From Akkermansiaceae bacterium (GTDB lineage Bacteria > Gemmatimonadota > Gemmatimonadetes > Palauibacterales > Palauibacteraceae): a DNA stretch of 64,000 nucleotides. The notes beneath the pieces are model-generated. The model searched no databases and had not been told where the DNA came from. It saw nothing but the letters and a program-made list of their open reading frames with translations. This document shows positions 8,915 through 50,384 of this stretch, in pieces. Location of the stretch: the NCBI GenBank assembly GCA_964195715.1, contig CAXMRU010000057.1, positions 5,015 through 69,014 of the forward strand. Direction: 5' to 3'. Numbering within the stretch: position 1 is the first letter of the stretch; every line of letters begins with the position of its first letter. A program made the position numbers and the translations under genes.

Positions 8915-9041
8915 ACGCGAAATGTGTGCGCGGGAACCCGGAGCGACAAGCGGAGGACCTGCGGTGGGGAGGAAGTTGCCGGCGCGGGCACGGTCATGGT
9001 CATGGGCCAACTGGTCCCGCGCCCGCCGCACGTGTGCTGAT

Positions 9042-16104: not shown

Positions 16105-17250
16105 GTGGAGAGCAGCCGCTTGCCCACGCGACGGCATAGGCTCATCCTGCGCGTTGTGACTCGCAACCGATGCACCGACAGGCTTCGAGGGGCCCTCCCC
16201 TTTTCGCTCCTCACCCTCGCGCTGGGCGGCTGCGCCAGCACGGCCGGGCCGGTCGCGGGACCGGCTGGTGGCACTTCCGAAGAGGTGCTCTCCGCTCCGG
16301 TCGTGGACCCCGCGATCGAAGCGACCGCAGACACCCCGATTCCGGACGCGGTGGACTCCGTAGCCTCGCCGGGACTCGATCTCGATTCTCTCGTCGCCCT
16401 GATCCGGTCCGAGGCAGCACACGAGAGACCGCGTTCAATTCTTCCGTTCGGCGTCGCCTGGACGCCCGTCCAGCCGATCGAGGGATCGGCGATCGTCTTC
16501 AGGGTGATGCAACCCCGTGGCGGACTCGAGCCTGAAGCTGTCGCCGGCCGGTTCGCGGACGGCGTCGTCCGGTTCGGACGAGCCAGGCACACCTGGCTCG
16601 GCTTCGCAGCCGTGCCGATCGGCACGAGCGGCATTCTTCAACTCGATCTCGAGTTTCGGTTCGGCGACGGATCGATGTATCAGCAACAGGTTGGCATCGA
16701 AGTCGCGCCCAGGGTGTGGGAGCAGACTTCCCTGAGCGTCGCCCCGAGATTCTCCTCTCCACCGCCCGAGGTTCAGGATCGGATCGCCCGGGACCGGAAG
16801 CAGTTCCGCGCGGTGCTGGATTCCGCTTCGCCCGAATGGCTGCTCGACGGCCCCTTCGCTCTACCCAGGCCCTTCGACGTGACGGCCGAGTTCGGCCAGG
16901 AGCGCGTGTTCAACGGAGAGATGCAGAGCCGCCACACCGGACTCGACCTGCGGGGCCCGGTCGGTGAGCCCGTTCATGCAGCCGGTCGGGGCCGTGTCGT
17001 GCTGACAGGCGACTTCTACTTCTCGGGAAACGGCGTCTTCCTGGACCACGGCCTCGGGGTCTATACGGGGTACTTCCACCTGTCCGAGATTCTGGTGCCC
17101 GAGGGGGAGATGGTCGAGACCGGCGAGCTCATCGGTCGCGTCGGAGCGACGGGCCGCGTGACCGGACCTCACCTGCACTGGTCCTTGTGGGTGGACGGAA
17201 CCGGCCAGGACGCCGGCAGCCTGCTGGAAGTGGAGATACCGCTGCCCTGA
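16105..17250 (+). CDS. M23 (LytM) family peptidase lipoprotein
   Basis: Lipobox LLTLALGGCAS. C-terminal M23 motifs HTGLDLRGPVGEPVHAAGRGRVV and GPHLHWSLWVDG. Confidence 0.7.
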   Translation: MESSRLPTRRHRLILRVVTRNRCTDRLRGALPFSLLTLALGGCASTAGPVAGPAGGTSEEVLSAPVVDPAIEATADTPIPDAVDSVASPGLDLDSLVALIRSEAAHERPRSILPFGVAWTPVQPIEGSAIVFRVMQPRGGLEPEAVAGRFADGVVRFGRARHTWLGFAAVPIGTSGILQLDLEFRFGDGSMYQQQVGIEVAPRVWEQTSLSVAPRFSSPPPEVQDRIARDRKQFRAVLDSASPEWLLDGPFALPRPFDVTAEFGQERVFNGEMQSRHTGLDLRGPVGEPVHAAGRGRVVLTGDFYFSGNGVFLDHGLGVYTGYFHLSEILVPEGEMVETGELIGRVGATGRVTGPHLHWSLWVDGTGQDAGSLLEVEIPLP

Positions 17251-27383: not shown

Positions 27384-27617
27384 GAGCCTGTCCGGGAGTC
27401 CCGAGCTACCGGTTCACGGCGGTCTTCCACCCGGAAGGCCGCCGTTTCTTCTGTCCGACACACACTGCGCCGGCCCTTCATCCCACCCCTGAGGGGAACG
27501 AAAGTGTGCGGTTTCGGTACATATCGTCCCGCAGCCGCACACAACGCGCCGGTGAAACTGGCCAAGCAGTACCTTGTAATGGTAATGAAACAAACATGTT
27601 ATGGCGTTCGTGCGAGG

Positions 27618-27633
27618 TGGCACAAGCGTTGCA
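27618..27633 (+). promoter_or_regulatory. sigma-54 (RpoN) -24/-12 promoter
   Basis: TGGCAC-aagcg-TTGCA is an exact consensus GG-N10-GC element, about 120-170 nt upstream of the HlyD-family gene. A GTGTGCGG...CCGCACAC inverted repeat (27504-27542) about 80 bp upstream could be an enhancer (UAS). Confidence 0.55.
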
Positions 27634-27753
27634 ACTGAAACGCTACGCCGTATCGGTGCGTAAAGCAGGATCCAGATACGGTGGAGGGGCGATGTTTCTT
27701 CCTGCCGTAGCCCGTTCGCGAGAACGGGGCCTGAACCGGGCTTCCGGGCCGCC

Positions 27754-29232
27754 GTGGCGGTGGCGGTGAGGCGTTCGGCAACTCAGCATCGAGAGACGGA
27801 GATGGAGAAGACAAACGGTGATGCGGCGGGGACGCCGGTCGGCACGACGCGTGAACGAACACGTCCGCGCGTGATAGAGCGTGAAGGAAAGCCTCGTCTG
27901 TCGCTGAAGAAGGGCCGGGGCGGAGAGGGCTCCTCCACCACTTCCAGCAGTTCGGCGCGTTCCGAATCCGGGTCGCGCGTATCGCGCATGGATGTCAAGC
28001 GCGCCCCAAGAGGAAAGAAGAAGCGGAACATATACATCGGGGTCGGCGCCGTTGCGCTGCTCCTGGTGACCTATTTTCTGGCCCGCCTCGAACCAGCGGC
28101 TCCCACGGTGGACCGGAACGTCATCGTGCAGGGAACCGTCGAGCGCGGCGAAATGGTTCGCCAGGTGCGCGGCTCAGGCACGCTCGTTCCGGAACGGGTG
28201 CAATTCGTGGCCGCTCTTACCGCCGGTCGGGTGGAATCAGTGCACTTCGAGCCGGGCCAGGAGGTAAGCGCGACAGACATCCTCATGGTGATGTCCAATC
28301 CCGATGTCGAGCTCCAGGTGCTCGAAGCCGAGCAGCAGTGGACTGCGGCACAGGCTTCGCTCTTGTCGCTACGCCGGACCCTCGGGACGGGGCTGCTGGC
28401 CCAGGAGGCCGCGGTAGCCGACGCACGAGCCCGGTTCCTTGTGGCGGAGCGCCAGGCCGAAGCGTACGCACGGATGGTCGGTAGCGACTGGGTGTCGGAG
28501 AACGAGTATCAGAACGCACGGGACAACGCCAGCGCTCTCGGGGAGCGGCTGCGCACTGATCAGGCTCGACTGGATCTGATGAACCAGACGAATGACGAAC
28601 AGCTCGCCGTGCAGCGGGACCAGGTGGGCCGGCTGGCCAACATCTACCGCTACTACCAGGAGCGGGCGTCCAACATGCGGGTCAAGGCCGGCGCCGAGGG
28701 CGTTCTCCAGGACTTCGATCTCGAGGTAGGACAGTGGGTGCAGGCAGGCACGACGCTCGCCCGGGTGGCCAGACCCGAGAGACTCAAAGCCGAGATCAGA
28801 ATCCCACAGACGCAGGCACGCGACGTCCAGGTCGGACAGGCCGCCTTCGTGGACACACGCACCGACACGATTCCCGGACGTGTGCGCCGTGTCGATCCGA
28901 ACGTGCAGGGCGGCTCCGTCCTCGTAGAAGTCACGCTGGAGGGAGACCTTCCGACCGGGGCTCGCCCCGACCTCTCCGTCGACGGGACCATCGAGCTGGA
29001 ACGTCTCAACGATGTGCTCCACGTGGGCCGCCCGGCGTATGGCCAGAGCCACAGTACTGTCAGCCTGTTCAGGGTAACCGAAGACGGCAACGCTGCCGAG
29101 CGCGTAACCGTGCGGCTCGGCCGCAGCAGCGTGAACCAGATAGAAGTCGTGGAAGGTCTCCGAGAGGGAGACGTGATCGTCCTCTCGGACATGTCCCGGT
29201 ACGACGACGTAGACCGAGTGCGTATCAGGTAA
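27754..29232 (+). CDS. HlyD-family periplasmic adaptor (membrane fusion protein, MacA-like)
   Basis: N-terminal TM helix, long coiled-coil hairpin, beta-barrel and lipoyl-like domains. Start may be MEKTNGD (27802). Confidence 0.75.
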   Translation: MAVAVRRSATQHRETEMEKTNGDAAGTPVGTTRERTRPRVIEREGKPRLSLKKGRGGEGSSTTSSSSARSESGSRVSRMDVKRAPRGKKKRNIYIGVGAVALLLVTYFLARLEPAAPTVDRNVIVQGTVERGEMVRQVRGSGTLVPERVQFVAALTAGRVESVHFEPGQEVSATDILMVMSNPDVELQVLEAEQQWTAAQASLLSLRRTLGTGLLAQEAAVADARARFLVAERQAEAYARMVGSDWVSENEYQNARDNASALGERLRTDQARLDLMNQTNDEQLAVQRDQVGRLANIYRYYQERASNMRVKAGAEGVLQDFDLEVGQWVQAGTTLARVARPERLKAEIRIPQTQARDVQVGQAAFVDTRTDTIPGRVRRVDPNVQGGSVLVEVTLEGDLPTGARPDLSVDGTIELERLNDVLHVGRPAYGQSHSTVSLFRVTEDGNAAERVTVRLGRSSVNQIEVVEGLREGDVIVLSDMSRYDDVDRVRIR

Positions 29233-29273
29233 CGCCGACGCGACGCGTCGCCACGAGGAGAGAGAGTCACGGG

Positions 29274-29981
29274 ATGGACAACGGCACACCGCTGATCCGG
29301 ATGGAGGGCGTCAAGAAGGTTTTCTACACGGATGAGATGGAGACGCACGCCCTGGCGGACATTCACCTCGACATTCACGACGGTGAGTTCACGGAAGTGG
29401 TGGGCCCCTCGGGGTGCGGGAAGTCCACGCTCCTGTCGCTGGTCGGGCTGCTGGACACGGCCACGGAGGGTGACTACTGGCTGGACGGCGAGCCCGTGGT
29501 CAAGCTCACGGCCTCGGAGCGGGCCCGGGTCCGGAACCGGCACATCGGGTTCATATTCCAGGCCTTCAACCTGATCGGCGACCTCACGGTATACGAGAAC
29601 GTCGAACTGCCGCTCACATATCGCGGCATGGCCGCCCCCGAGCGCAAGGACCGAGTCCACCGCGCCCTCGAGCGCGTCGGCATGGGCCACCGCATGGATC
29701 ACTATCCGTCGCAGCTCTCAGGCGGTCAGCAGCAGAGGGTGGCCGCGGCGCGCGCCGTGGTCGGCGACCCCTTGATCCTCCTGGCCGACGAGCCCACGGG
29801 AAACCTCGACTCCACAAACGGTGAGGCAGTCATGGACCTCCTGAAGGAGCTCCACGCAGAGGGATCCACCATCCTGATGGTGACCCACGACCCCCGCTAT
29901 TCCAAGTACGCCGAGCGGACCATTCATCTGTTCGACGGGCGCATCGTCGAAGAGCGATCGGCCGAGACGAAGACCGAGTGA
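29274..29981 (+). CDS. ABC transporter ATP-binding protein (MacB/LolD/FtsE-like ATPase), stand-alone
   Basis: Walker A GPSGCGKST, Q-loop, signature LSGGQQQRV, Walker B ILLADEPT, H-loop. GAGGAG RBS. 235 aa with no fused or adjacent permease. Confidence 0.85.
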   Translation: MDNGTPLIRMEGVKKVFYTDEMETHALADIHLDIHDGEFTEVVGPSGCGKSTLLSLVGLLDTATEGDYWLDGEPVVKLTASERARVRNRHIGFIFQAFNLIGDLTVYENVELPLTYRGMAAPERKDRVHRALERVGMGHRMDHYPSQLSGGQQQRVAAARAVVGDPLILLADEPTGNLDSTNGEAVMDLLKELHAEGSTILMVTHDPRYSKYAERTIHLFDGRIVEERSAETKTE

Positions 29982-31351
29982 TCATGAGCGACTACAGAGC
30001 CAGCATTCTCGTCGCCGACGACCAGGCGGACGTCCTGGCGGCGCTTCGCCTGCTGTTGAAGGCAGAAGGTTACGATATCGCCACTGCGTCCTCGCCGGCA
30101 GAGGTCCTCGAGCTCCTGGATCTGGACGAGTTCGACTGCCTGCTGCTGGATCTCAACTACACGCGCGACACGACGTCCGGGCAGGAGGGGCTCGATCTGC
30201 TTCCCCGGATCCAGGCGCTCGACAGCACACTCCCCATCATCGTCATGACAGCGTGGGGAAGCATCGAGAGCACGGTAGAGGCAATGCGGCGCGGAGCCCG
30301 CGACTACATCGAGAAGCCGTGGGACAACGACCGACTGCTCGCCACGATTTCTTCACAGCTCGAGCTGGTGCAGGCGGTCCGGCGAGCGCAGTTCCTCGAG
30401 GCCGAGAACGAAATGCTCCGGGACGCAGATGTACCGGAGCTGATCGCGGATTCGCGAGCGATGCAGCCCGTGCTCCGGCTCATCGAGCGGGTCGGGCCAT
30501 CGGACGCCAACGTGCTGATCACAGGCCAGCCGGGGACCGGAAAAGAAGTAGTGGCCCGCTGGCTGCACTATCGCTCGAACCGGGCGGACCGTCCCCTCGT
30601 GACAGTGAACACGGGCGGATTGTCCGAGGGCGTGTTCGAGAGCGAAATGTTCGGGCACGTGAAGGGAGCGTTCACGGACGCGAAGGCCGACCGGGTCGGT
30701 TACTTCGAGCTCGCAGGCCACGGCACACTCTTCCTGGACGAGATCGGCAACCTGCCCCTCACACAGCAGGCCAAGCTGCTGCGCGTTCTCGAGTCGGGCG
30801 AGTTCCAGCGAGTCGGTACCTCCAAGGCTCGCAAGGTGGATGTGCGCATCCTCACGGCCACCAACTCGAACCTGGAGCGCTCCGTGGCGGACGGTACGTT
30901 CCGCGAGGATCTCTACTATCGGCTGAACACCGTGGAGATCAGCCTCCCGCCGCTTCGGGAGAGACGCGAGGACATCCCGCTGCTGGCAGCCCACTTCCTG
31001 AGGGTCAGCGGCGCAAAGTACGGACGCCCCGACCTGGCGTTCTCGCCCGCAGCTATGGACGCGCTTCTCAGGCACCCGTGGCCGGGTAACATCCGAGAGC
31101 TCAGACATTCTGTCGAGCGGGCGGTCCTTCTGACCGATAACCACCATGTCGAGGTCGAACATCTGGGGCTGCGCCAGGCTGCGGAAGGATCGCTCCGGCT
31201 CGAGGCCGTTCCGCTGGATGAAGCCGAGCGAATTCTGATCCGCAAGGCACTGTCGAGGAACCGGGGAAACGTGAGCCGCGCCGCAAACGACCTCGGCCTC
31301 AGCCGCAGCGCGCTGTACCGTCGCCTGAAGCGCCACGGCCTTCACGCCTGA
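29978..31351 (+). CDS. sigma-54-dependent response regulator (NtrC family)
   Basis: Receiver domain with phospho-acceptor Asp in DCLLLDLNY. AAA+ sigma54-interaction domain (GESGTGKE-like GQPGTGKEVV, GAFTDA, ESEMFGH). C-terminal Fis-type HTH. ATGA overlap with the ABC ATPase gene. Confidence 0.9.
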   Translation: MIMSDYRASILVADDQADVLAALRLLLKAEGYDIATASSPAEVLELLDLDEFDCLLLDLNYTRDTTSGQEGLDLLPRIQALDSTLPIIVMTAWGSIESTVEAMRRGARDYIEKPWDNDRLLATISSQLELVQAVRRAQFLEAENEMLRDADVPELIADSRAMQPVLRLIERVGPSDANVLITGQPGTGKEVVARWLHYRSNRADRPLVTVNTGGLSEGVFESEMFGHVKGAFTDAKADRVGYFELAGHGTLFLDEIGNLPLTQQAKLLRVLESGEFQRVGTSKARKVDVRILTATNSNLERSVADGTFREDLYYRLNTVEISLPPLRERREDIPLLAAHFLRVSGAKYGRPDLAFSPAAMDALLRHPWPGNIRELRHSVERAVLLTDNHHVEVEHLGLRQAAEGSLRLEAVPLDEAERILIRKALSRNRGNVSRAANDLGLSRSALYRRLKRHGLHA

Positions 31352-31372
31352 GGATCTGACAGGAGGCGGCAG

Positions 31373-32716
31373 ATGAACCAGCACGGCGCCAGGCGCCGAA
31401 TCCGCAAGCGACTCACCTACCAGCGAGCAATACCGCTCCTCGCCATGCTTTCTGGTTTACCTGCGGTGCTGGTGACTCTCGTTCTCGTGTGGACGGGCGA
31501 CCACGCCAGCCGGACGCAGTGGACCGTCACCGTCTTCGTTCTCGGCTCCTGGATCTCCCTCCTCATTGCGATGCGCGACCGGCTCGTCAGGCCTCTCCAT
31601 GCGGTCTCCAACATGCTCGAGGCACTGCGTGAGGGAGACTATTCGCTGCGTACCCGGGCACCAGCCAGGGACGACGCGCTGGGCCTCATTCTCCACGAAG
31701 TGAACGAGCTAGCCGGATCATTTCACAATCAGCGGCTGGATGCGCTCGAAGCTTCCAACCTCCTCACCAGAGTAATGACTGTCATCGACGTGGCGCTGTT
31801 CTCGTTCGACGACCAGGACCGTCTACGACTGATCAACCGGACAGGTGAGGACCTGCTCAGCCGCAAGGAAGACGAGGTGCTCGGACACACCGCAGAGGAC
31901 CTCGGACTCAGCGAGTGCCTTCTCGGTGAGACACCCCGGGTGATGGACGTGGCCGTGGCCGAAGGTTTCGGTCGCTGGGAGCTGCGCCGACGCAGCTTCC
32001 GATGGGAAGGACGACCGCACCGGCTGGTCGTTCTCGTGGACCTGAGTCAGGTGCTGCGAGACGAGGAGCGCGTCGCCTGGCAACGCCTGATTCGCGTGCT
32101 CAGCCACGAAATCAACAACTCGCTCACTCCCATCAAATCGATCGCCACGAGCTTAAGCGCCATGCTCGAGCGTGACGGCGACCGGACGGAGCGCGACGAG
32201 GATCTAAAGGAAGGACTACGGGTCATCTCCGGCAGGTCGGAGGCACTGGGTCGGTTCATGTCCTCGTACGCCCGACTGGCGAAACTGCCGCGGCCGCAGA
32301 AGCGAGAGATCAGCGTCCAGGAATGGGTGCAGCGGGTGGCCAGTCTCGAGTCACGGCTCGAAGTGGAGGTGATCGACAGCCAGGACGTTCGCATCGAGGC
32401 GGACGGCGACCAGCTGGACCAGCTGCTGATCAACCTGCTCGACAACGCAGTGGACGCGTCTCTCGAAACAGGTGGAACGGTGCGCATGGGATGGTGCGAG
32501 TCAGATGGATGCGTACAGGTGCGCGTGGAGGACGAAGGGCCCGGTCTCGCTCAGACGGCCAATCTGTTCGTGCCCTTCTTCACGACCAAGCCCAGGGGCT
32601 CCGGCATCGGTCTCGCTCTGAGCCGCCAGATCGCGGAGGCGCACGGCGGACGGGTACGGCTGCACAATCGCAAGGATGGTCCGGGCTGCGTGGCTGAGGT
32701 GCGATTGCCCCTCTAG
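31373..32716 (+). CDS. sensor histidine kinase
   Basis: Two TM helices, HisKA H-box (LSHEINNSLTPI), HATPase_c N/G1/G2 boxes (LINLLDNAVDAS, DEGPGL, GSGIGLALS). Confidence 0.85.
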   Translation: MNQHGARRRIRKRLTYQRAIPLLAMLSGLPAVLVTLVLVWTGDHASRTQWTVTVFVLGSWISLLIAMRDRLVRPLHAVSNMLEALREGDYSLRTRAPARDDALGLILHEVNELAGSFHNQRLDALEASNLLTRVMTVIDVALFSFDDQDRLRLINRTGEDLLSRKEDEVLGHTAEDLGLSECLLGETPRVMDVAVAEGFGRWELRRRSFRWEGRPHRLVVLVDLSQVLRDEERVAWQRLIRVLSHEINNSLTPIKSIATSLSAMLERDGDRTERDEDLKEGLRVISGRSEALGRFMSSYARLAKLPRPQKREISVQEWVQRVASLESRLEVEVIDSQDVRIEADGDQLDQLLINLLDNAVDASLETGGTVRMGWCESDGCVQVRVEDEGPGLAQTANLFVPFFTTKPRGSGIGLALSRQIAEAHGGRVRLHNRKDGPGCVAEVRLPL

Positions 32717-35163
32717 GGCCGCGCGCGGAGGGAGTTAAACAGGAGCGGGAAGGTCGCCAGAGACTGACCGCGGTACTGGGGTCGGATGCCAAAAAGCACC
32801 ACACGACCGCGACCGATGGGAACTTCGACGATGGCCGAGGCGCTGGACAGTACAGATACCCCGTGTACCCAGCCGCTTAGCACTCTCGGCCGTGCTCCAT
32901 ACGTCGCTATTGAAACGGCTGCACTCCCGGCGGGAAGGTCGAACGCGCCTCCGCCTTCGATCCACGCGGCCGGCTGCGGTGGCATGCCTCGCCCGACCGT
33001 CGTAGCCGTGTCTACGTGCAACTGCACTTGCGCACCCGGAGCCAAGAATACGTCTCCAGCCTGACCCCGAAGCCGATCTGTCACCGGAAGTCCGAGCCTT
33101 TCGATGACCCAGCCCGATGAGGCCCCGAGCGCTACGAGAGTTCCACCTTCCTCCACGAACGTTCTCAGCTCCTGCGCGCCGACCGCGCCGAGTCCACCCG
33201 TGTACTGGACCGGCATCGACCCTGTGGCCCAGCCTTCGTCCAGCACGGTCTCCGCGATCGACGGCAGCACGATGCTCGTGAACCTGTGGGCCAGGCCACC
33301 TTGCCTCACCTGTTGATCGTGCACCGTGGCATACGGAATCTCGTGGCGATCGAACAGCCAGCGAGTCCAGCCTTCGTCCGCTACCGGGACCCACGGCTGG
33401 TACAGGCCGACCAACAGTCCTGCCTCGCCTGACACGCCCGGCGCGCGCGGAGGAGACAGCACTGGTGGTCGGTCCATGCGGACCATCTCACCGGCCGGCA
33501 TGCCGCGCACCGCCTCGGCCTCAACGCCCAGAAGGAGCGGAAGGTTGTGCGCCGTGACATCGTACGGTTCTCTGGCGGGCCCACGACTTCCGTCTGGAAC
33601 GCCGGGGTACGCCTGGGGGGCCAGCAGCACCTGGGCGAACGCGGCATACGGCTGGCGCATGTCAACGACCAGACTACCCGGCCGGAACGTCGACGTCCCG
33701 ACACGCAATTCGCCGGTCGCCACCTGGATCTCCACCTGGCCCAACAGCAGAATCCGGGCGAGCTCGGCCATAGAGGCCTCGTTGTCCCGTCCTCCGGGAA
33801 TCACCCATGCCCGGGGCCATTCAGGCCATCCGGCCACTGCCCGCTCTCCGACTGTCACGAAGTTGTCGAGCCACGCCTCCCGGGAACCGGCGGCGCTCTT
33901 CAACAGCGCCAACGCTCCCGATTCCATGTAATCCAGGATGTCCGCCAGGTCCCACCGCCCGCCGGGCCACGGAACGGGCTGGTTCCACGCCGGATACGCC
34001 GGCCAGCCTCCGTCAGTCGCGCGAAGCTCCTCGGGCAGGATGTCGACCGGCGTGGCCATGCGTGCGCTGGCCGTCTCGCTCAAGAGGCGGACCGCAGCAT
34101 GGTAGTGGGCGTAGGCTCGGGCAGGGCCCCACGCGTCGTAGCTGGCGTTCACCACGACGCCCATCTTTCCCTGCTTAAGCAGCTCCCACGCGATGGCCGT
34201 GCCGAGGGCGTTCGCTGCCGCCGTAAGCAGCGGATCTACGTTCGGCTCGATCGGATCGAGCCAGGGCGGGACGAAGTAACGGCTCCCCGTCGGGTCCTGC
34301 TGGTGGATGTCGTGCACGATCTGCGGATGCCACTCGTTGTATACGCGCTCCACCACGCTGCGTGTCTCCACCTGTGTGAAGGCGTTCCAGTCACGGTTGT
34401 TGTCGTGGCCCGCGTAGTGGTGGTAGAGGAACGGGGGAGGGGACCCCTCCCACGGCATGCTCACTGACGCCCGATACCAATCTGCCACCATGTCCACGCC
34501 GTCGGGGTTCAAGGACGGCACGATGAGCACCACGCACTCCCGAAGCACTTTCAGCATCGTCGGATCGGTAGCCGAGGCCAACCGATACGCAAGCTCCAGC
34601 ACCGCCAGAGGCCCTCCAACCTCGGTCGGGTGGATCCCTGTTGTGATCAGGACGACGAGGCGCCCGTTACGAATCAACTCCGCGCGTTCAGCGGGATCGG
34701 CGATCCGGCGTGGATCCGCGAGCCGCGCCTGCACGGCCCTGATCTCTGCGAGGCTCGCCTGGTTCGCGGGGTCCGTGATCGTCGCCAGCACCATCGGGCG
34801 ATCCAGGGTGCTCCGACCGATCGTATCCAGGCGAACCCGATCGCTCTGGCGAGCCAGCGCTTCCAGGTAGCTCGTGGCCTGGTCCCAGTCCACGACGTGG
34901 TAGTCCTCGCCGGGCCGAAAACCGAGGTGCGCCTCGGGAGGATCCGGTGGCAGGCGCAACTCGCTCTCGCCGTCCGGCTCCTGCGCTGGCAGTGGTCCGA
35001 CGACAGCCAGGACGACGAGGAACGGAACAACCACGCGTGGCCACCGGCACGGACGGTTTCGCGGCCGGACTGCGCCGGCGACCGGCTCAGGAGACCAGTG
35101 CCGGAACATCGGCGAGCGAAGTGACGATGTAGTCCGGGCGCTCGGCAGGCATCGCTTCCTCAA
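32713..35163 (-). CDS. secreted M14-family zinc carboxypeptidase
   Basis: Signal peptide. Zn-ligand motifs HPTE and HYAGHDNNRDW of M14 carboxypeptidases. About 800 aa. An alternative start at MFRHW (35109) is possible. Confidence 0.7.
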   Translation of the reverse strand: MRKRCLPSARTTSSLRSPMFRHWSPEPVAGAVRPRNRPCRWPRVVVPFLVVLAVVGPLPAQEPDGESELRLPPDPPEAHLGFRPGEDYHVVDWDQATSYLEALARQSDRVRLDTIGRSTLDRPMVLATITDPANQASLAEIRAVQARLADPRRIADPAERAELIRNGRLVVLITTGIHPTEVGGPLAVLELAYRLASATDPTMLKVLRECVVLIVPSLNPDGVDMVADWYRASVSMPWEGSPPPFLYHHYAGHDNNRDWNAFTQVETRSVVERVYNEWHPQIVHDIHQQDPTGSRYFVPPWLDPIEPNVDPLLTAAANALGTAIAWELLKQGKMGVVVNASYDAWGPARAYAHYHAAVRLLSETASARMATPVDILPEELRATDGGWPAYPAWNQPVPWPGGRWDLADILDYMESGALALLKSAAGSREAWLDNFVTVGERAVAGWPEWPRAWVIPGGRDNEASMAELARILLLGQVEIQVATGELRVGTSTFRPGSLVVDMRQPYAAFAQVLLAPQAYPGVPDGSRGPAREPYDVTAHNLPLLLGVEAEAVRGMPAGEMVRMDRPPVLSPPRAPGVSGEAGLLVGLYQPWVPVADEGWTRWLFDRHEIPYATVHDQQVRQGGLAHRFTSIVLPSIAETVLDEGWATGSMPVQYTGGLGAVGAQELRTFVEEGGTLVALGASSGWVIERLGLPVTDRLRGQAGDVFLAPGAQVQLHVDTATTVGRGMPPQPAAWIEGGGAFDLPAGSAAVSIATYGARPRVLSGWVHGVSVLSSASAIVEVPIGRGRVVLFGIRPQYRGQSLATFPLLFNSLRARP

Positions 35164-40705: not shown

Positions 40706-41491
40706 TCAGGTCCCTTCCACAAGATAATCGAGCGGGTCCACGGGTACGCCCTGTCGCTCGATCTCGACGTGCAGGTGCGGAGCGGTCGATCGGCCGCTGT
40801 TTCCCGACAGGGCAATCACCTCTCCTACCTCCACCGAGTCGCCCGGGCCTACGAACAGCCATGAGTTGTGCGCGTACAAGCTGCTCAGTTCATCATCGTG
40901 TGCGACTCGAACGTATAGTCCGTACTCCGGGTCGTCCCCCGTCTCGGAGACCCGCCCGGTACGAGACGTGCGCACGTACGAACCCACCGGCACGGCGATG
41001 TCCACGCCCACATGCCCGTCCGGCGGAGCGGCAGTCGTGTCCCCGAAATTCCGCGTCACGAAGCCCTGTTCGACCACGGGCCACACAAAGCCCGCGCTGG
41101 CTTCCTGTTCACTTACGCGGCGCTCGCTCGCTTCCTTCTCAGACAATGGAGGGAGCAGAATGTCACGTTGCGACCTTCCAAGCTCTCCTCCCATCACCAC
41201 TCTCAGCTGCCGGTACTCGGCCTCGAGGCGCTCAACACGCTCTGCTACGACCCTCATCGCCGCATTTTCACGCTGCAAGTCGGAGACCTCCGCTTCCAGA
41301 GCCGCAATTTCGTCCCCGGAAGCCAGGTTGCCTACCCACCGGCCGGCGCCGAAGAAGGCTGCGCCGAGGGCGGTCAACAGCACCGTTGCCAGCAGTGTCA
41401 CCTTCGCGCGCGACAGCGCCACTGTGCGGGACTGCACTTCTCCTTCCCGCACCACGATCAGCGTCCAGCGCCGGCGTCCTTCCGCGTTCAT
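40706..41491 (-). CDS. M23 (LytM) peptidase with N-terminal TM helix and coiled coil
   Basis: TM segment TLLATVLLTALGAAFFGAG. Coiled coil. M23 motifs HVGVDIAVPVGSYV and SGRSTAPHLHVEI. ATGA overlap with the parB gene's stop. Confidence 0.75.
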   Translation of the reverse strand: MNAEGRRRWTLIVVREGEVQSRTVALSRAKVTLLATVLLTALGAAFFGAGRWVGNLASGDEIAALEAEVSDLQRENAAMRVVAERVERLEAEYRQLRVVMGGELGRSQRDILLPPLSEKEASERRVSEQEASAGFVWPVVEQGFVTRNFGDTTAAPPDGHVGVDIAVPVGSYVRTSRTGRVSETGDDPEYGLYVRVAHDDELSSLYAHNSWLFVGPGDSVEVGEVIALSGNSGRSTAPHLHVEIERQGVPVDPLDYLVEGT

Positions 41492-42387
41492 CGTTCTCCG
41501 AACAGCTCGCCGGCGTCAGCCGCGTCGAGAAGTGCGCGCGTCACGCGTTCGAATTCGTCCGGATCATGAAACGGAATTCGGATTTCGCCCTGGTTGCGCG
41601 CGCGCAGCGTCACCTTGACGTTCGTCCCATACGCGCGGGACAGCAGCACGGCCGCCTTGCGGGCGACTGGGTCTTCGCGCGCCGGTCCTCGCTTACCGCC
41701 CGGGGGTCCTCGCTTCTTGCCAGTTCGTGCCCGGGACTCGGTCTCGCGTACCGACAGCCCCTTCGCTGCAACTTCCCGCGCGAGCGCTACCTGATCCGCC
41801 TCTCCCTCAACCGACAGAATGGCCCGGGCGTGCCCGGCGGTGATCGCCCCTTCGCTCAGCAGGTCACGAACTGCAGCGGGAAGCGTGAGAAGCCGCAGCG
41901 CGTTCGCCACGGTCGAGCGGTCCCGTCCCACTCGCTTCGCCGCTTCTTTCTGAGTGAGACCGAAACCGTCGATCAACTGCTGGTAACCCACGGCCTCCTC
42001 GAGCGGGCCCAGATCCTCCCTCTGGAGGTTCTCCACGAGTGCCACGACCAGCATCTGTTCGTCGCTGAGTGGCCTGACTATCGTGGGCGCCTTTTCCCAA
42101 CCGAGGCGCGTGAGCACCCGCCACCTACGCTCGCCCGCCACCAGCTCGAAATCGAGGCCGGCCGGCCGGACTACCAGGGGCTGCAGCAAGCCGTTTTCAC
42201 GGATCGACGCCTCGAGCTCGTCGAGGGCCTCGCCCTCGAATTGCCTGCGCGGCTGGAACGGGTTGGGTCGGATACGGCCTACCTCGATCTCCCGGATCGG
42301 CATTTTGCCGGACGCCGGCTCCTCGAGGTATTCCCCGAGAAGGGCTCCGAGTCCTTTGCCGAGACGCCGTGCTTCAGGTTTGGGCAA
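41488..42387 (-). CDS. parB: chromosome partitioning protein ParB/Spo0J
   Basis: TTG start preceded by AAGGGGG. It overlaps the parA stop. ParB box I/II (RLGKGLGALL; PIREIEVGRIRPNPFQPRR; GLLQPLVVRP; GERRWRV). HTH. 299 aa. Confidence 0.85.
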   Translation of the reverse strand: MPKPEARRLGKGLGALLGEYLEEPASGKMPIREIEVGRIRPNPFQPRRQFEGEALDELEASIRENGLLQPLVVRPAGLDFELVAGERRWRVLTRLGWEKAPTIVRPLSDEQMLVVALVENLQREDLGPLEEAVGYQQLIDGFGLTQKEAAKRVGRDRSTVANALRLLTLPAAVRDLLSEGAITAGHARAILSVEGEADQVALAREVAAKGLSVRETESRARTGKKRGPPGGKRGPAREDPVARKAAVLLSRAYGTNVKVTLRARNQGEIRIPFHDPDEFERVTRALLDAADAGELFGER

Positions 42388-43171
42388 CGACGGCCCCCTT
42401 CCTCTCTTCGTCCCGGCGCACGATCTCCGACGCCAGGCTGAGGTATCCCCGGGCGCCGGTCGACAGCACATCGTACAGCGCGATCGGCTGTCCGAAGCTC
42501 GGCGCCTCGGCGAGTCGAACATTCCGGGGAATCCAGGTCTTGAAAACCTTCGCCCCGAAGTACTCCTCCGCCTCTCCCTTCACCTGCTTAGACAGGTTGA
42601 GGCGCGAGTCGAACATCGTCAGTAGCACCCCTTCAATGCCCAGTTCCGGATTGATGCTCCGCTGAACGATCCGCACCGTGTTCAGCAACTGGCTCAGCCC
42701 CTCGAGCGCGTAGAACTCGCACTGGATAGGGATCAGTACGGTGTCTGCCGCTACAAGGGCGTTGAGCGTGAGCAGGCCGAGCGAAGGAGGAGAGTCGATG
42801 AGGACGTACTCGTATCGGTCCCGGATCGGCTCCATGATCTCACGCAGTACGCGCTCCCGCCGTGGCCGCTCGATCAATTCGACCTCAGCTCCGGCAAGAT
42901 CTCGGCTCGCCGGGACCACATCCAGCATGGGGAAGTGGATCGCCGGTCGAATTGCGTCTTCCAAGGCCTGCCCATCCACGAGACAGTCGTACACATCCGG
43001 CGCGCCGCTTTCTCTGGCGATCCCGAGGCCGCTGGATGCGTTGCCCTGCGGATCACAATCGATGACAAGCGTTTTCTTCTCCGCGATCGCCAGGGAAGCA
43101 CCCAGGTTGATGGCGGTGGTGGTCTTGCCGACTCCGCCCTTCTGGTTAGCTATGGCGATGACTCGCGACAT
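42374..43171 (-). CDS. parA: chromosome partitioning ATPase ParA/Soj
   Basis: Deviant Walker A KGGVGKTT. ParA family throughout. Confidence 0.9.
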   Translation of the reverse strand: MSRVIAIANQKGGVGKTTTAINLGASLAIAEKKTLVIDCDPQGNASSGLGIARESGAPDVYDCLVDGQALEDAIRPAIHFPMLDVVPASRDLAGAEVELIERPRRERVLREIMEPIRDRYEYVLIDSPPSLGLLTLNALVAADTVLIPIQCEFYALEGLSQLLNTVRIVQRSINPELGIEGVLLTMFDSRLNLSKQVKGEAEEYFGAKVFKTWIPRNVRLAEAPSFGQPIALYDVLSTGARGYLSLASEIVRRDEERKGAVVAQT

Positions 43172-43327
43172 CTGTACTCCGCACTAAAACGTTGTTATTA
43201 AACAAGTTACCGCTACGTCTATGTCGGGGCAGCGTCGCCTCGAGAACCTCAACCCGCTCGGAGTGGATCTTCCTGTTCCACGGGGCGAGGAATATACGGC
43301 GGGTCCGTGTGTGAGCCAAGAAAACAA

Positions 43328-43343
43328 TGTTGCACGTGAAACA
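43328..43343. promoter_or_regulatory. parS site (ParB-binding centromere), copy 1
   Basis: TGTTGCACGTGAAACA matches the parS consensus TGTTNCACGTGAAACA. It is immediately upstream of parA. Confidence 0.7.
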
Positions 43344-43365
43344 TCTTGCGACTCCGCCGTTCCTG

Positions 43366-43381
43366 TGTTGCACGTGAAACA
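43366..43381. promoter_or_regulatory. parS site, copy 2
   Basis: Identical 16-mer TGTTGCACGTGAAACA, 38 bp from copy 1. Confidence 0.7.
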
Positions 43382-43388
43382 ACTGCAA

Positions 43389-45281
43389 TCAAGTGATCTC
43401 GCAGTCTCCCGGGACCATCCTCCGTCCGCGCTTCCGTACCTCCACGAGAAGGTTCTGAAGATCGGAGGGAGACACTCCTGGAATGCGTGCCGCCTGACCC
43501 ATGGTCTGCGGCCGAACCGTTGACAGTTTCTGCCGAGCTTCAAGTGACAACGACCGAAAATCCAGGTATGGGGCATCCGGAGGCAGCAGCAAACCCTCCC
43601 GCTCGGCCAGAGCAGTCGCTCGTTCTTCCTCGCGACGTATGTAGCCGTCGTACTTCACCTCCATCTCAACGACCGCGAGCGCATCAAGCCCCAGGCCCGG
43701 ATCACGAACGGGACCGTCTTCCGCCACCAGCGCCCGAAGCGTCACCTCTGGCCGGCGTACGAGACGGATCAGAGGTTTTCGCTCGGTAAGCGGGCTGCTA
43801 CTGCGGTCAACCAGCCACTCGTTGGCTTCGGCAGGATCAATCCGCTCCTCTCGAATCCACTTACGGGTTCGCTCGAGGTCCTCCAGATGCCCGTCCAGAC
43901 GCACCAACTCCTCCTCCGACAGCAGACCAAGCCGCTCCGCTACCGGGCCCATGCGTAACAGCGCATTGTCCTGTCTGAGCATGAGCCGGAATTCAGCTCT
44001 TGACGTGAACAGTCGATATGGCTCGTCTACTCCACGAGTCACGAGGTCGTCCACGAGGACTCCGATGTACGCTTCGTCCCGCCCGGGTACCCACGGTTCC
44101 CGATCAAGCGCCGCGTGGGCTGCATTCACCCCTGCGACCACGCCCTGTGCGGCGGCCTCTTCGTAACCCGTCGTGCCGTTCACTTGACCCGCCAGGTACA
44201 GTCCATGCAAGCACTTGAGCGCCAGTGTTCGCCCGAGCTGCAAAGGAGGGAAGAAGTCGTACTCGATTGCATAACCGGGTTGAGTCATACGGGCGTTCTC
44301 CAGGCCCGGCACCGCACGCAGGAATTCACGTTGAACATCCGGGGGCAACGACGTGGAGAGACCGTTTACGTACAGCTCTGAGGTTTCCAACCCTTCCGGT
44401 TCGAGAAATACCTGGTGTCCACTCGCCTCAGGGAACTTGACGATCTTGTCTTCGATCGACGGGCAGTACCGCGGACCCTGTGAAGCGAGCACCCCTCCGT
44501 ACAGAGCCGATCGATCCAGGTTGGATTGGACAATCTCCTTTACTTCCTCACCCGCGCGCGCTATCCAGCATGGCCGCCTCTCGAGTCCGCCGCTCACCTC
44601 CCAGTGCGAGAACCTGTATCCGTCCTCCTCGCCGTCCTGCCGCTCCAGGCGGTCAAGGTCCACACTCCGGCCATCCACTCGGGGTGGCGTGCCTGTCTTG
44701 AAGCGTCGCGCCTCCAGCCCCAGGTCGCGCATCTGATCCGCCAGCGCCACGGAAGGAGCATCTCCCGCCCTACCTGCAGCAAACTCCCTCTCGACACCGA
44801 TCCGAATGCTGCCACGCAGGAACGTGCCGGCCGTGAGCACGACGCTGCGTGCTGCGAACTCACTGCCGTCCGCACATACGACTCCCGAGACCCGCTCTCC
44901 TTCCATGCGCAGCACGGAAACAGTCCCCTGGAACATCTCCAGCCCGCGCTGCTCCTCCAGCAGCGAGCGGATCTCTCGCGAATAGAGACCCCTGTCGCAC
45001 TGGGCCCTCGGCGCCCAGACCGCCGGCCCCTTGCTGCGATTCAGCATTCGGAAGTGCAGCGTGGTACGATCAGCGGCTCGTCCCATAAGTCCGCCCAGCG
45101 CATCTACTTCCCGCACCACGGTTCCCTTCGCAACACCGCCGATCGCCGGGTTGCAGGACATCTGTCCGACCCGTGCAAGGAACGACGTCACGAGCAGCGT
45201 CTTCGCGCCGGCCCTCGCGGACGCATTCGCAGCCTCCGAGCCCGCGTGGCCCCCGCCGATGACGATCACGTCGTAGTACAT
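43389..45281 (-). CDS. mnmG: tRNA uridine-5-carboxymethylaminomethyl modification enzyme MnmG (GidA)
   Basis: Start MYYDVIVIGGGHAGSEAA (FAD Rossmann), with AGGAGAGGA RBS. The ORF's upstream extension was rejected. 631 aa. Confidence 0.9.
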   Translation of the reverse strand: MYYDVIVIGGGHAGSEAANASARAGAKTLLVTSFLARVGQMSCNPAIGGVAKGTVVREVDALGGLMGRAADRTTLHFRMLNRSKGPAVWAPRAQCDRGLYSREIRSLLEEQRGLEMFQGTVSVLRMEGERVSGVVCADGSEFAARSVVLTAGTFLRGSIRIGVEREFAAGRAGDAPSVALADQMRDLGLEARRFKTGTPPRVDGRSVDLDRLERQDGEEDGYRFSHWEVSGGLERRPCWIARAGEEVKEIVQSNLDRSALYGGVLASQGPRYCPSIEDKIVKFPEASGHQVFLEPEGLETSELYVNGLSTSLPPDVQREFLRAVPGLENARMTQPGYAIEYDFFPPLQLGRTLALKCLHGLYLAGQVNGTTGYEEAAAQGVVAGVNAAHAALDREPWVPGRDEAYIGVLVDDLVTRGVDEPYRLFTSRAEFRLMLRQDNALLRMGPVAERLGLLSEEELVRLDGHLEDLERTRKWIREERIDPAEANEWLVDRSSSPLTERKPLIRLVRRPEVTLRALVAEDGPVRDPGLGLDALAVVEMEVKYDGYIRREEERATALAEREGLLLPPDAPYLDFRSLSLEARQKLSTVRPQTMGQAARIPGVSPSDLQNLLVEVRKRGRRMVPGDCEIT

Positions 45282-45399
45282 TCCTCTCCTGGTTCCTATC
45301 CCCGGTTCCGGGCGCCCCGCCAAATCCGAGGCTCCCGCTCCCGCGGACCCTTCTTCAGCTTCGGGCCGCGCGGCCCGCCAAACTAGGGACGATAGGTCG

Positions 45400-45687
45400 A
45401 TGCAGCCAAGTATGGATGAGTCACGGGTCGGCTTTGTCATCGAGGGCCGCGTACAGGCGGTCGGATTCCGGTGGTGGGCCCGGTGCTCGGCAATCCGGCT
45501 TGGCCTGCGCGGAACCGTGCGTAACCGAACGGATGGTTCGGTGGAAATACATGCCTCCGGCTCTCCTGATGCGCTGCAGATATTCGTCGCGGCACTCCGT
45601 ACGGGGCCGCCGGGCGCCCGGGTGGATGTCGTGCGCCCCATCACGTCCACCGGCGAGTTACCCGCGGACTTCCGCGCGATTCTCTGA
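45400..45687 (+). CDS. acyP: acylphosphatase
   Basis: VIEGRVQAVGFRWWA..GLRGTVRNRTDGSVEIHASG is the acylphosphatase signature. Confidence 0.8.
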   Translation: MQPSMDESRVGFVIEGRVQAVGFRWWARCSAIRLGLRGTVRNRTDGSVEIHASGSPDALQIFVAALRTGPPGARVDVVRPITSTGELPADFRAIL

Positions 45688-45760
45688 GGCCGGCACTTTT
45701 TCACTTTGCAGGTGTATCCCCGTAGCATTCTGACACCTACCGCGCGAGGATGAACGCATC

Positions 45761-46558
45761 ATGATAGAGCTGCCAGACGTCGAGCGAATGATCGACGCCT
45801 TTGCCGGATACGCCACCGGGAAGACCGTGTCCGTTGTCCTCATTGACGACAAGGAGACCGTCGACCTGGATGCCGATCAGGCCGCCGAGCACATCCAGGG
45901 CCATGCCATCGACACCGTCGAACGGCGCGGAAAGTACGTCGTTCTCCGTTTCCGCTCCGAAGTAAGCCTTATCTTCGACATGGGATCCGACGGCGAAGTG
46001 TATCTCGAGTCGCAGACGGCGCCGCCCCGTGAAACTAGCAAGATCCGGCTTCAGTTCGCCGCCGGCCGCGAGCTTCGCTTCGCCTCCAGTGGCACCAACG
46101 GCGATGTTCATCTCCTTGAAGGTGAGGACCTTTCGGGTTTCGGCCTCCTCAACAATCTCGGCCTCGATCCGCTCAGCGAGGAACTCACGCCGGACCGATT
46201 CATACACATGGCACGCCAGCGTACACGTAGCACTCTGAAGGGTCTCCTGATGAACGAGGAGGTCGTGGCGGGCATCGGAAACGAGTACGCGGACGAGATC
46301 TGCTTCCAGGCCAGTATCCGGCCCGACTGCAAGGTCGGGGACCTGTCCGACGAGCAGCTCGCCCGGATTCAGAAGTACCTGAGGCGTGTGCTGCGCCGGG
46401 CGACTCTGCACTGGCAGGCGGCGCATTCCGACCCGGGGTGGCTCATCAACCGGCGGCATCCGGGGCATACGTGTCCCCGATGCATGAGCGAGCTGGAATC
46501 CCTGAGTGTAGTGGGAAAGCGGACGTATCTCTGTCCCAGGTGCCAGCGAGCAGCCTGA
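45761..46558 (+). CDS. Fpg/Nei-family DNA glycosylase (H2TH + zinc finger), atypical N-terminus
   Basis: N-terminal IELPDVE. H2TH GIGNEYADEICFQASIRP. C4 zinc finger CPRC...CPRC. Residue 2 is Ile, not the canonical catalytic Pro. Confidence 0.8.
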   Translation: MIELPDVERMIDAFAGYATGKTVSVVLIDDKETVDLDADQAAEHIQGHAIDTVERRGKYVVLRFRSEVSLIFDMGSDGEVYLESQTAPPRETSKIRLQFAAGRELRFASSGTNGDVHLLEGEDLSGFGLLNNLGLDPLSEELTPDRFIHMARQRTRSTLKGLLMNEEVVAGIGNEYADEICFQASIRPDCKVGDLSDEQLARIQKYLRRVLRRATLHWQAAHSDPGWLINRRHPGHTCPRCMSELESLSVVGKRTYLCPRCQRAA

Positions 46559-46577
46559 CAGGCTCCTGCTGGCCGGA

Positions 46578-47942: not shown

Positions 47943-47989
47943 GCCCGGGCTCGCTGGAGGGCGCGCAGACGGCTCGAGCGGCGGGATTC

Positions 47990-49768: not shown

Positions 49769-50028
49769 CTGTCCTCTGTCAGGTATGGTGTTGCCACCCC
49801 GTGCACTCCTCCCTCGGCCTCTGGCACCGGGTCGATCCCGTGTCCGCCGAACGGGTGGCACCTGCCCACGCGCCTGACTGCCAGCCAGGAGCCTCGCGCC
49901 GCGCCGTGACGCTCGACCGCGATGCGCGCGTACTCCGAGCAGCTCGGGGTGTAACGACAGCTCGCCGGGAACAACGGGGAAAGGCCCGCCTGATACGCTC
50001 GGATCCAGAACAGGAGGAAGTGCTTCAT
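49753..50028 (-). CDS. yidD: membrane protein insertion efficiency factor YidD
   Basis: LIRAYQAGLSPLFPASCRYTPSCSEYARIAVERHG is the YidD signature. ATGA-type overlap with rnpA. Confidence 0.85.
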   Translation of the reverse strand: MKHFLLFWIRAYQAGLSPLFPASCRYTPSCSEYARIAVERHGAARGSWLAVRRVGRCHPFGGHGIDPVPEAEGGVHGVATPYLTEDRWRSE

Positions 50029-50384
50029 TCAGCCGCCGTGCACCGACCGAGCGCACTCCGCAACGCGTCGAATCCCAGCTCGTATGCTCCCGGCCGTGCC
50101 CGAATCAGGATTTCAGGCGGTGGCGTCTCGTCTCGAGCCCCCGGAAGCCAGGTCGTGCGAACGCACTCCCTCAACCGCCGTTTGAGACGGTTACGCTCCA
50201 CAATCGTATGTCCGTAGCGAGGAACGACGATGCCCGCGCGGGCCCGGTGCGTCCGCGAGACCGCGCGATACACCTCCAGCGGCCCGCAACGCCGCCGCGA
50301 ACCCTGTTTAACGAGGGTCCGGATCTCGGGCCCGCGTCGAAGGCGGGCCGACCTTGGATACCGAAAACGGCGTCCGTCACCCAA
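50025..50384 (-). CDS. rnpA: ribonuclease P protein component RnpA
   Basis: RnpA core (LRRGPEIRTL..., GIVVPRYGHTIVERNRLKRRLRE, LIRARPGA). There is no in-frame ATG after the rpmH stop. Proposed TTG start at 50384; the start is uncertain. Confidence 0.6.
   Translation of the reverse strand: MGDGRRFRYPRSARLRRGPEIRTLVKQGSRRRCGPLEVYRAVSRTHRARAGIVVPRYGHTIVERNRLKRRLRECVRTTWLPGARDETPPPEILIRARPGAYELGFDALRSALGRCTAAE

Follow-up and report, generated by a model that had tools for sequence, protein, structure and literature searches.

A putative sigma-54-dependent adaptor/ATPase operon without a linked permease in Gemmatimonadota: a candidate export module with an ADOP permease in trans

Structure of the operon and its control region

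We examined a 64,000-nucleotide (nt) stretch of contig CAXMRU010000057.1 (the window; 64% GC, with Gemmatimonadota genes), with specific emphasis on an operon of four genes that encodes a periplasmic adaptor and an ATP-binding cassette (ABC) ATPase, followed by a two-component regulatory system, and that contains no permease gene. A preliminary description of this DNA, made from the letters alone, had proposed this make-up (HlyD adaptor, ABC ATPase, NtrC-type regulator, and histidine kinase), with which Pfam agrees. It had also stated that no permease is encoded in the operon, and this was borne out: no FtsX or MacB_PCD domain was found by Pfam in the large open reading frames (ORFs) scanned across the window, and tblastn of the window with three permeases of the ADOP family gave a best E value of 0.04 and no permease remnant. 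The features of the locus are as follows.

27416-27445, plus strand: intrinsic terminator of the upstream pyruvate dehydrogenase E1/E2 operon (13-bp stem with 9 GC pairs, then TTTCTTCTG)
27505-27521, plus strand: enhancer (upstream activating sequence, UAS) site 1, TGTGCGGTTTCGGTACA, a TGT-N11-ACA dyad centered about 131 bp upstream of the predicted transcription start
27525-27541, plus strand: enhancer (UAS) site 2, CGTCCCGCAGCCGCACA, a TGT-N11-ACA dyad centered about 111 bp upstream of the predicted start
27566-27604, plus strand: AT-rich spacer between enhancer and promoter (36% GC, versus 64% for the window)
27618-27633, plus strand: sigma-54 -24/-12 promoter, TGGCAC-N5-TTGCA; exact match, TGGCACAAGCGTTGCA, conserved in relatives
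27644-27801, plus strand: 5' leader, about 158 nt, with predicted hairpins; alignment shows conservation among close relatives
27802-29232, plus strand: HlyD-family periplasmic adaptor, 476 amino acids (aa) (Pfam HlyD_3 and HlyD_D23)
29274-29981, plus strand: stand-alone ABC ATPase of the MacB/LolD/DarD type, 235 aa (Pfam ABC_tran, 1.6e-32)
29984-31351, plus strand: NtrC-family sigma-54 enhancer-binding response regulator (the activator), 455 aa (Pfam)
31373-32716, plus strand: histidine kinase, 447 aa (Pfam HisKA and HATPase_c)

The -24/-12 element had been recognized previously and is confirmed as an exact consensus match downstream of the terminator; TGGCACAAGCGTTGCA is the sole site in the window with ≤1 mismatch to the sigma-54 consensus (by our own arithmetic, about 0.015 exact matches per window are expected by chance). 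Its GG and GC doublets are 10 nt apart, and the element is correctly oriented and intergenic, 168 nt upstream of ATG 27802, with transcription predicted to start near 27644. A sigma-54 element lies upstream of the adaptor gene in >30 related loci, with ≤1 mismatch in nearly all of them. It is kept in every relative in which the operon is linked to the pyruvate dehydrogenase E2 gene and also occurs in more distant, permease-containing operons. A second conserved sigma-54-like site, CGGCAC-N5-TTGCA, located downstream on the minus strand of three relatives (L024, 20189; L025, 14785; L064, 20333; L numbers denote related loci), was rejected as a promoter. In L024 it is located within an M23 peptidase gene and encodes the active-site motif TGRSTAPHLH, and the near-identical hits in L025 and L064 were interpreted by analogy; this coding site is a recurrent false positive in sigma-54 promoter scans.

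Upstream of the promoter, the centers of the two dyads are 20 bp apart, that is, on the same helix face. Hand alignment of the upstream regions of 15 relatives on the promoter gave the consensus block TGTTCGGTTTCGGTACA-cat-CGTcCCG-nnn-CCGGACA, equivalent to two 17-bp TGT-N11-ACA dyads. Site 1 is nearly invariant across all E2-linked relatives, a conserved (c)GT-N11-ACA block adjoins it in relatives, and dyad 1 and the promoter are always 96 nt apart in the 14 loci retrieved. In distant permease-containing operons the dyads are TGT-N10-ACA rather than TGT-N11-ACA. An inverted repeat had been reported at this position, and both of its arms, GTGTGCGG (27504-27511) and CCGCACAC (27535-27542), are present; the first arm forms the left half of dyad 1, and the second forms the right half of dyad 2. 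The repeat itself is not a conserved unit: arm complementarity is lost in relatives (e.g., TGTTCGG...CCGGACA), while each dyad is kept. The dyad layout resembles that of the classical NtrC-type upstream sites at glnAp2. The AT-rich spacer, with similar spacers visible in relatives, is likely a bending or looping region; no exact IHF consensus was found in it. Defined in this way (TGTNCGGNNTCGGNACA, with TGGCAC-N5-TTGC 96 nt on), the enhancer motif could be used for regulon prediction in these uncultured sediment bacteria.

The leader contains three predicted hairpins; in one of them, GGAGGG pairs with CUUCCU. RNAalifold gave −35 kcal/mol with a covariation term of only −0.38, i.e., weak covariation, and the leader matched no Rfam family. 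A short upstream ORF following the Shine-Dalgarno-like GGAGGGGC was rejected, as it is not conserved at the protein level.

Pyruvate dehydrogenase E1-alpha, E1-beta, and E2 genes precede the operon and end at the strong terminator (27416-27445), because of which the operon should be transcriptionally isolated from them. Tight packing on one strand and the Pfam assignments support the earlier view of four coupled genes. The claimed ATGA overlap was not found: the ATPase/regulator junction reads GAG TGA TC ATG, giving a GTGA overlap if translation starts at GTG 29978 and otherwise a 2-nt gap to ATG 29984. The adaptor and ATPase genes are 41 nt apart and the regulator and kinase genes 21 nt apart, and a Shine-Dalgarno-like sequence is present in both gaps. 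A sequence scan of the operon found neither a terminator nor a sigma-70-like site inside it, and the adaptor, ATPase, activator, and kinase genes are presumably cotranscribed.

The four encoded proteins are ordinary representatives of known families, and their scores stay below every equivalog cutoff. In the adaptor, about 75 cytoplasmic residues at the N terminus form an extension, which is followed by one transmembrane (TM) helix (about residues 77 to 97) and the adaptor domains. The protein scores 117.6 against a cutoff of 94.9 for NCBIfam RND_mfp (TIGR01730). Its first ∼60 codons are conserved as protein with L001, with changes of the synonymous type, and this conservation of the extension supports ATG 27802 as the start. 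The extension (residues 1 to 75; 27802-28030) is basic and serine rich, with a conserved RER.RPRV..RE..PRLSLK.G stretch. As tblastn matches to most of the more distant adaptors start at about residue 55 to 63, it seems to be mostly limited to this clade and its nearest sister clade. The ATPase retains intact Walker A, Q-loop, signature, Walker B, and H-loop motifs. Its best NCBIfam models are DarD, MacB, LolD, and FtsE, each below the equivalog cutoff (DarD, the top model, 258.5 bits versus 375; MacB, 229.9 bits over the N-terminal part of the model only). Its length had been presented as anomalous ("only 235 aa"), but it is normal for a stand-alone ATPase of the LolD/FtsE/DevA/DarD type.

The activator comprises Response_reg (2e-24), Sigma54_activat (7e-65), and HTH_8 (2e-13) domains, the last a Fis-type helix-turn-helix (HTH). 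Its sigma-54 contact loop reads GAFTDA instead of GAFTGA, a change listed among the variants that keep activation (PMC4641369). No NCBIfam equivalog among NtrC, AtoC, ZraR, NtrX, and PrsR was reached (360 to 382 bits versus cutoffs of 503 to 760; NtrC, 382 versus 559; AtoC, 377 versus 714; ZraR, 360 versus 760), and by these scores the activator is a member of an unnamed NtrC-family subfamily. The kinase has TM helices at about residues 20 to 41 and 50 to 67, separated by a loop of about 8 residues and followed by HAMP, a PAS-like region, HisKA, and HATPase, and it has no extracytoplasmic sensor domain. This two-TM, minimal-loop topology is kept in 12 kinase orthologues from all operon types. 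By resemblance to Bce systems, it is compatible with intramembrane or transporter-mediated sensing.

Relatives of the operon and association of promoter with regulator

Relatives were collected by an adaptor-alignment scan with one genome per species, which gave 60 Gemmatimonadota loci; about 100 related Gemmatimonadota loci were compared overall. The 60 loci were classified by phmmer with the window proteins and one ADOP permease as queries. An ADOP permease is approximately 800 aa long, with two MacB_PCD+FtsX units, and scores above the TIGR03434 cutoff; the permeases of the relatives are true members of the family, with 817 to 921 bits against the cutoff of 622. The loci fall into the following types.

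Type A: adaptor, ATPase1, one to three ADOP permeases, (ATPase2), activator, kinase (L027, L034, L037, L040, L041, L042, L057, L062)
Type B: adaptor, ATPase, one ADOP permease; regulators absent (L004, L018, L020, L021, L026, L031, L035, and others)
Type C: E2, then adaptor, ATPase, activator, kinase; permease absent (window, L001, L010, L024, L025, L064)
Type C, from the metagenome scan: L085; L073, L089, and L096 to the contig end; many truncated contigs
Type D: adaptor, ATPase1, ATPase2, activator, kinase; permease absent (L033)

Type A was confirmed for L027 and L034 by independent gene calls, and L057 has no ATPase2. Arrays of at least four ADOP genes, running off the contig, follow a single adaptor/ATPase pair in L029, L030, L047, L048, and L061, so that the number of ADOP genes per pair ranges from 0 to at least 4. 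In a neighbor-joining tree of the adaptors, the E2-linked type C loci form one large clade, with a type B subclade (L018 to L021 and L065) nested inside it.

The permease-less junction recurs in at least 10 independent assemblies with 64 to 98% adaptor identity, always by the E2 gene. All four genes are present, without a permease, in L001, L010, L024, L025, L064, and L085, and L073, L089, and L096 are permease-less up to the contig end. Two contigs of metagenome-assembled genomes (MAGs), L111 and L112, have an identical kinase and the same regulator-kinase-M14 peptidase neighborhood. L111 (CAXMPU010000071.1 of MAG GCA_964195305.1), which contains all four genes, has a kinase identical to that of the window and the same gene neighborhood and is apparently the window's own contig. 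Ratios of nonsynonymous to synonymous substitution rates (dN/dS) against the closest relatives are 0.10 to 0.14 for the adaptor, 0.03 to 0.08 for the ATPase, 0.045 for the activator, and 0.07 to 0.08 for the kinase (versus L085 and L010); these are similar to or lower than those of the neighboring E2 gene (0.11 to 0.14).

A decaying remnant or an assembly artifact, with nonfunctional remaining genes and a permease that was lost recently or is hidden in an assembly gap, might be suspected, since relatives have permeases after the ATPase gene and the ATPase gene is frameshifted in one metagenome contig (L001). This explanation is extremely improbable and effectively refuted. The distance from the ATPase stop to the activator start is 0 to 2 nt, and there is therefore no room for a gap; L002 and L003, which represent the same locus as L001, show an unsplit ATPase gene up to the contig end; and the junction occurs repeatedly in independent assemblies. 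Judged by the dN/dS values, all four genes are under strong purifying selection, and the permease-less layout is neither artifact nor decay.

Loci of types A, C, and D, in which the regulator genes are linked, have the enhancer and the sigma-54 promoter in front of the adaptor gene, with L057 and L063 unclear. Nine type B loci have no sigma-54 promoter even when 2 mismatches are allowed, and two further type B loci gave poor hits only, without TTGC. Co-occurrence of promoter and enhancer with the regulators, together with clade-specific dyad spacing, is the best available evidence for the linked activator acting at this site. We infer from this sequence comparison that the operon's own activator drives its sigma-54 promoter, and the autoregulation proposed in the preliminary description is upheld to that extent: the promoter is kept in nearly all relatives with linked regulators and absent from those without them.

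Alternatively, a different enhancer-binding protein could activate the promoter, and the linked two-component system could merely be cotranscribed and have other targets. Binding of the activator is itself deduced by comparing sequences, and metagenome contigs have enhancers of the same type in front of unrelated genes for exported proteins, so that this activator, or paralogous activators, would have other targets. We nevertheless consider a foreign activator unlikely: enhancer and promoter occur together with the linked activator over deep divergence and are absent when it is absent, and dyad spacing differs by clade (N11 or N10) in step with the clade of the linked activator.

Two further observations concern the regulator-linked loci. 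A second ABC ATPase paralogue with intact catalytic motifs is encoded directly upstream of the activator in L027, L033, L034, L037, L040, L041, and L042; it may be a heterodimer partner of the first ATPase or have a regulatory role. L033 contains an extra enhancer and sigma-54 promoter (16136-16151, minus strand) 3.8 kb downstream of the kinase gene, facing an 82-aa ORF with a hydrophobic N terminus.

Candidate permeases and proposed mode of action

The permease that follows the adaptor/ATPase pair of L026, a member of the sister clade with an adaptor 80% identical to that of the window, was used as the query in an ADOP protein search. Matches at 86 to 89% identity are still linked to an adaptor and ATPase (L107 and L108). 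Those at 80 to 83% are orphans at a conserved DUF819-ADOP locus on five distinct contigs (L104, L109/L110, L115, L116, and L117), and those at 70% are also orphans (L105 and L106). In the adaptor tree, the permease-linked type B subclade lies beside the main type C group, and an orphan ADOP of this kind could therefore be the detached partner of the type C adaptor/ATPase pair. The earlier suggestion that the permease is encoded elsewhere thus stands as the best reading, in the form of a comparison with relatives, whose ADOP permeases follow the ATPase gene and whose close orthologues are orphans.

Scanning of metagenome contigs for the enhancer-plus-promoter pattern gave 35 loci, about 17 of which are type C orthologues. 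One of the others, L087, is an orphan ADOP gene with both dyads and a promoter about 35 nt upstream of the start codon. Divergently transcribed ADOP genes with the same enhancer and sigma-54 promoter were found in L030 and, less clearly, in L047. ADOP genes that are not linked to an ATPase gene and are under this type of enhancer therefore exist, though in other genomes.

The same scan identified potential targets other than permeases. In eight metagenome contigs (L072, L079, L084, L088, L090, L091, L093, and L098), the bipartite enhancer and promoter stand before a gene whose product, a conserved ∼155-aa protein (MYYGA.RKREGLKAL...) with no Pfam match, is exported or membrane anchored and may be a further regulon member or a cargo. 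In L071, L075, and L082, the first gene behind the enhancer and promoter encodes a secreted ∼195-aa protein, and the next encodes a protein in which a peptidoglycan-binding domain is weakly matched; L071 additionally encodes a patatin-like protein (at least 710 aa) after these two. The MAG to which L071 belongs (CAJIAC01) also holds an orphan ADOP (L117), and its N11-type enhancer and sigma-54 promoter before exported-protein genes provide the only link, an indirect one, between an orphan ADOP and genomes with the permease-less operon. A contig of the permease-less type, L099, carries an ORF (2-1303) at a distance of 6.4 kb upstream of E2; its match to the ADOP model (349 bits) covers the C-terminal half of that model. 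As a linked ADOP it is a weak candidate: its first 70 residues match an amino-acid transporter, it lies at a contig end, and it may be a chimera or a pseudogene.

We propose, with a probability of roughly 0.6, that the operon encodes an envelope-export module under sigma-54-dependent, positive autoregulation, with an ADOP permease as the partner provided in trans. According to this model, (i) the kinase, with two membrane helices and no periplasmic sensor domain, would phosphorylate the NtrC-type activator. (ii) The activator would bind both TGT-N11-ACA dyads, which lie in tandem about 130 and 110 bp before the start, loop over the AT-rich spacer, and open the sigma-54 promoter at 27618-27633. 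(iii) A single transcript would supply adaptor, ATPase, activator, and kinase. (iv) The adaptor and ATPase would belong to a tripartite exporter of the MacB type (type VII ABC) and account for two of its three inner-membrane parts. (v) The third part would be an ADOP-family duplicated FtsX permease, split from the operon in this lineage and supplied by another locus, and one ATPase/adaptor pair would serve one or more orphan permeases. Of the parts of a MacB-type exporter, a nucleotide-binding domain (NBD) of the MacB/LolD class and an HlyD/membrane fusion protein (MFP) adaptor are present. From the gene orders of the relatives, the missing component is most likely a duplicated permease of the ADOP family, with which the pair would act in trans.

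Several observations weigh against this proposal. No ADOP gene could be assigned to the window's own genome or to any genome with a permease-less operon; when record names were compared, none of the sources of orphan ADOP genes (MAGs JAIVXB, JAUVPT, and CAJIAC and contigs from JGI and ENA) was a MAG with a permease-less operon. Orphan ADOP genes closest to the sister-clade permease had no sigma-54 promoter at the two loci examined, and coregulation is therefore not general. Two regulator-linked loci, L057 and L063, have no clear promoter. Neither rpoN nor an OEP/TolC domain of a TolC-like outer-membrane factor was seen among the scanned ORFs of the window. The OEP/TolC domain was likewise missing from the gene tables of two permease-containing relatives, and a TolC-like partner could be encoded elsewhere, as is tolC in Escherichia coli.

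A signaling role, which the preliminary description had raised for the ATPase, would dispense with a permease altogether: the ATPase and adaptor would transport nothing and would modulate the kinase, or sense through it, in a Bce-like manner. The extracytoplasmic loop of the kinase is only 8 residues long in all operon types, and in all layouts but L057 and L063 the gene immediately before that of the activator encodes an ABC ATPase, namely the first ATPase in the permease-less operon and the second paralogue in permease-containing operons. We regard such a role as improbable. The adaptor keeps its full periplasmic architecture and exceeds the RND_mfp cutoff; the orthologue of the ATPase in permease-containing operons is their first ATPase and not the paralogue encoded next to the regulator; and the HAMP and PAS-like regions of the kinase could sense on their own. 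In Bce systems, moreover, it is the permease and not the ATPase alone that couples to the kinase.

The proposed export module can be extended, tentatively, to a scheme that we consider possible but doubtful. A shared "engine" of one ATPase and one adaptor, under a sigma-54 two-component switch, would power orphan ADOP permeases, and the kinase would read transporter activity in the membrane, as in Bce systems. If true, this would answer the question of which ATPase powers the orphan ADOP family and would represent a diderm, sigma-54 counterpart of transporter-coupled signaling.

Comparison with known systems and neighboring genes

Permease-containing Gemmatimonadota operons with the order adaptor-ATPase-ADOP(x1-3)-ATPase2-activator-kinase (L027/L103, L034/L102, L037, L040, L041, and L042) share with the operon of the window orthologous adaptor, first ATPase, activator, and kinase genes in the same order, as well as the sigma-54 promoter and the bipartite TGT...ACA enhancer upstream of the adaptor gene. 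They differ in having one to three tandem ADOP genes and a second intact ATPase gene between the first ATPase and the activator, in their TGT-N10-ACA dyads, and in not being located beside E2.

ADOP genes are typically not adjacent to ATPase genes, as given in the TIGR03434 model description. The window thus presents a mirror image, with an ATPase but no permease rather than a permease but no ATPase; the ADOP family is the permease partner of this adaptor/ATPase type in relatives, and no ADOP gene lies in the window. The family was first noted in Acidobacteria, and a cluster of ten paralogues is present in Psychroflexus torquis (PMC3914696). In Acidobacteria, Gemmatimonadota, and some Bacteroidota, ADOP permeases are present as large families of paralogues and have been annotated as orphans without a known ATPase or function. 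The same type of adaptor/ATPase pair stands beside a variable number of ADOP genes (none to four or more), one clade stably keeps the pair without a linked permease, and regulator-linked versions appear, from their sequences, to have a dedicated sigma-54 activator with a recognizable enhancer. Together these provide a testable model in which one ATPase/adaptor pair serves exchangeable permeases.

An HlyD-family adaptor and a MacB-type NBD are shared with the MacAB-TolC exporters of E. coli and Salmonella (type VII ABC). There, the MacB ATPase is fused to a single FtsX-type membrane domain, whereas here the ATPase stands alone and the partner in relatives is internally duplicated. The sigma-54 promoter and NtrC-type regulation are a further difference: to our knowledge, macAB is not sigma-54 dependent, and our literature search found no paper linking MacAB with RpoN. 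The DarBCD (darobactin) and DevBCA (glycolipid) exporters likewise combine an adaptor, a stand-alone ATPase, and an FtsX-type permease. The window has no permease and no dar or dev genes near the operon, and the scores lie below the cutoffs (DarC, 48.9 versus 450; DarD as given above).

In BceRS-BceAB of Firmicutes, transporter and kinase act jointly as the sensor. The operon shares with this module the genetic coupling of a two-component system to an FtsX-family ABC transporter and a kinase with two TM helices and a minimal loop. BceRS-BceAB has an OmpR-type regulator instead of an NtrC-type sigma-54 activator, and the operon has no BceB-type permease, possesses a kinase with HAMP and PAS-like regions and a periplasmic adaptor, and belongs to a diderm phylum. 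NtrBC at glnAp2, ZraSR, and AtoSC share the receiver-AAA+-HTH activator, tandem dyads roughly 110 to 140 bp from the start, a -24/-12 promoter, and an activator gene within the operon that it presumably activates; their targets are nitrogen, zinc, and acetoacetate metabolism, in contrast to an export system here.

Sigma-54 promoters are enriched upstream of genes for COG0577 (FtsX-like permease) and COG1136 (its ATPase) in Opitutia, Bacteroidia, and gamma-Proteobacteria (PMC12316311, 2025). That study shares with ours the general link between sigma-54 and this ABC class, a link that is statistical and so far reported only from other phyla; it makes no mention of Gemmatimonadota, names neither a cognate activator nor an enhancer, and describes no permease-less operon. 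Apart from it, the literature search yielded no paper on sigma-54 and ABC transporters in Gemmatimonadota or on sigma-54 and MacAB, ABC exporters are not mentioned by Francke et al. (2011), and no report of this regulator, its enhancer, or a conserved permease-less operon was found.

Downstream of the operon, the stop codons of the kinase gene and of a convergent M14 peptidase gene overlap inside a CTAG palindrome (32713-32716), and this neighbor is also kept in L001, L010, and L085. The convergent gene is an 816-aa ORF (32713-35163) of the size of a duplicated permease; it was rejected as such, since Pfam identifies it as an M14 peptidase. Further downstream, 40706-50056 contains a cluster of the origin-region type (M23 peptidase, parB, parA, mnmE, and yidC). 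Upstream, at 6412-9031 on the minus strand, a LuxC-like acyl-CoA reductase is encoded beside a LuxE-like acyl-protein synthetase, a combination that is unexpected for sediment Gemmatimonadota.

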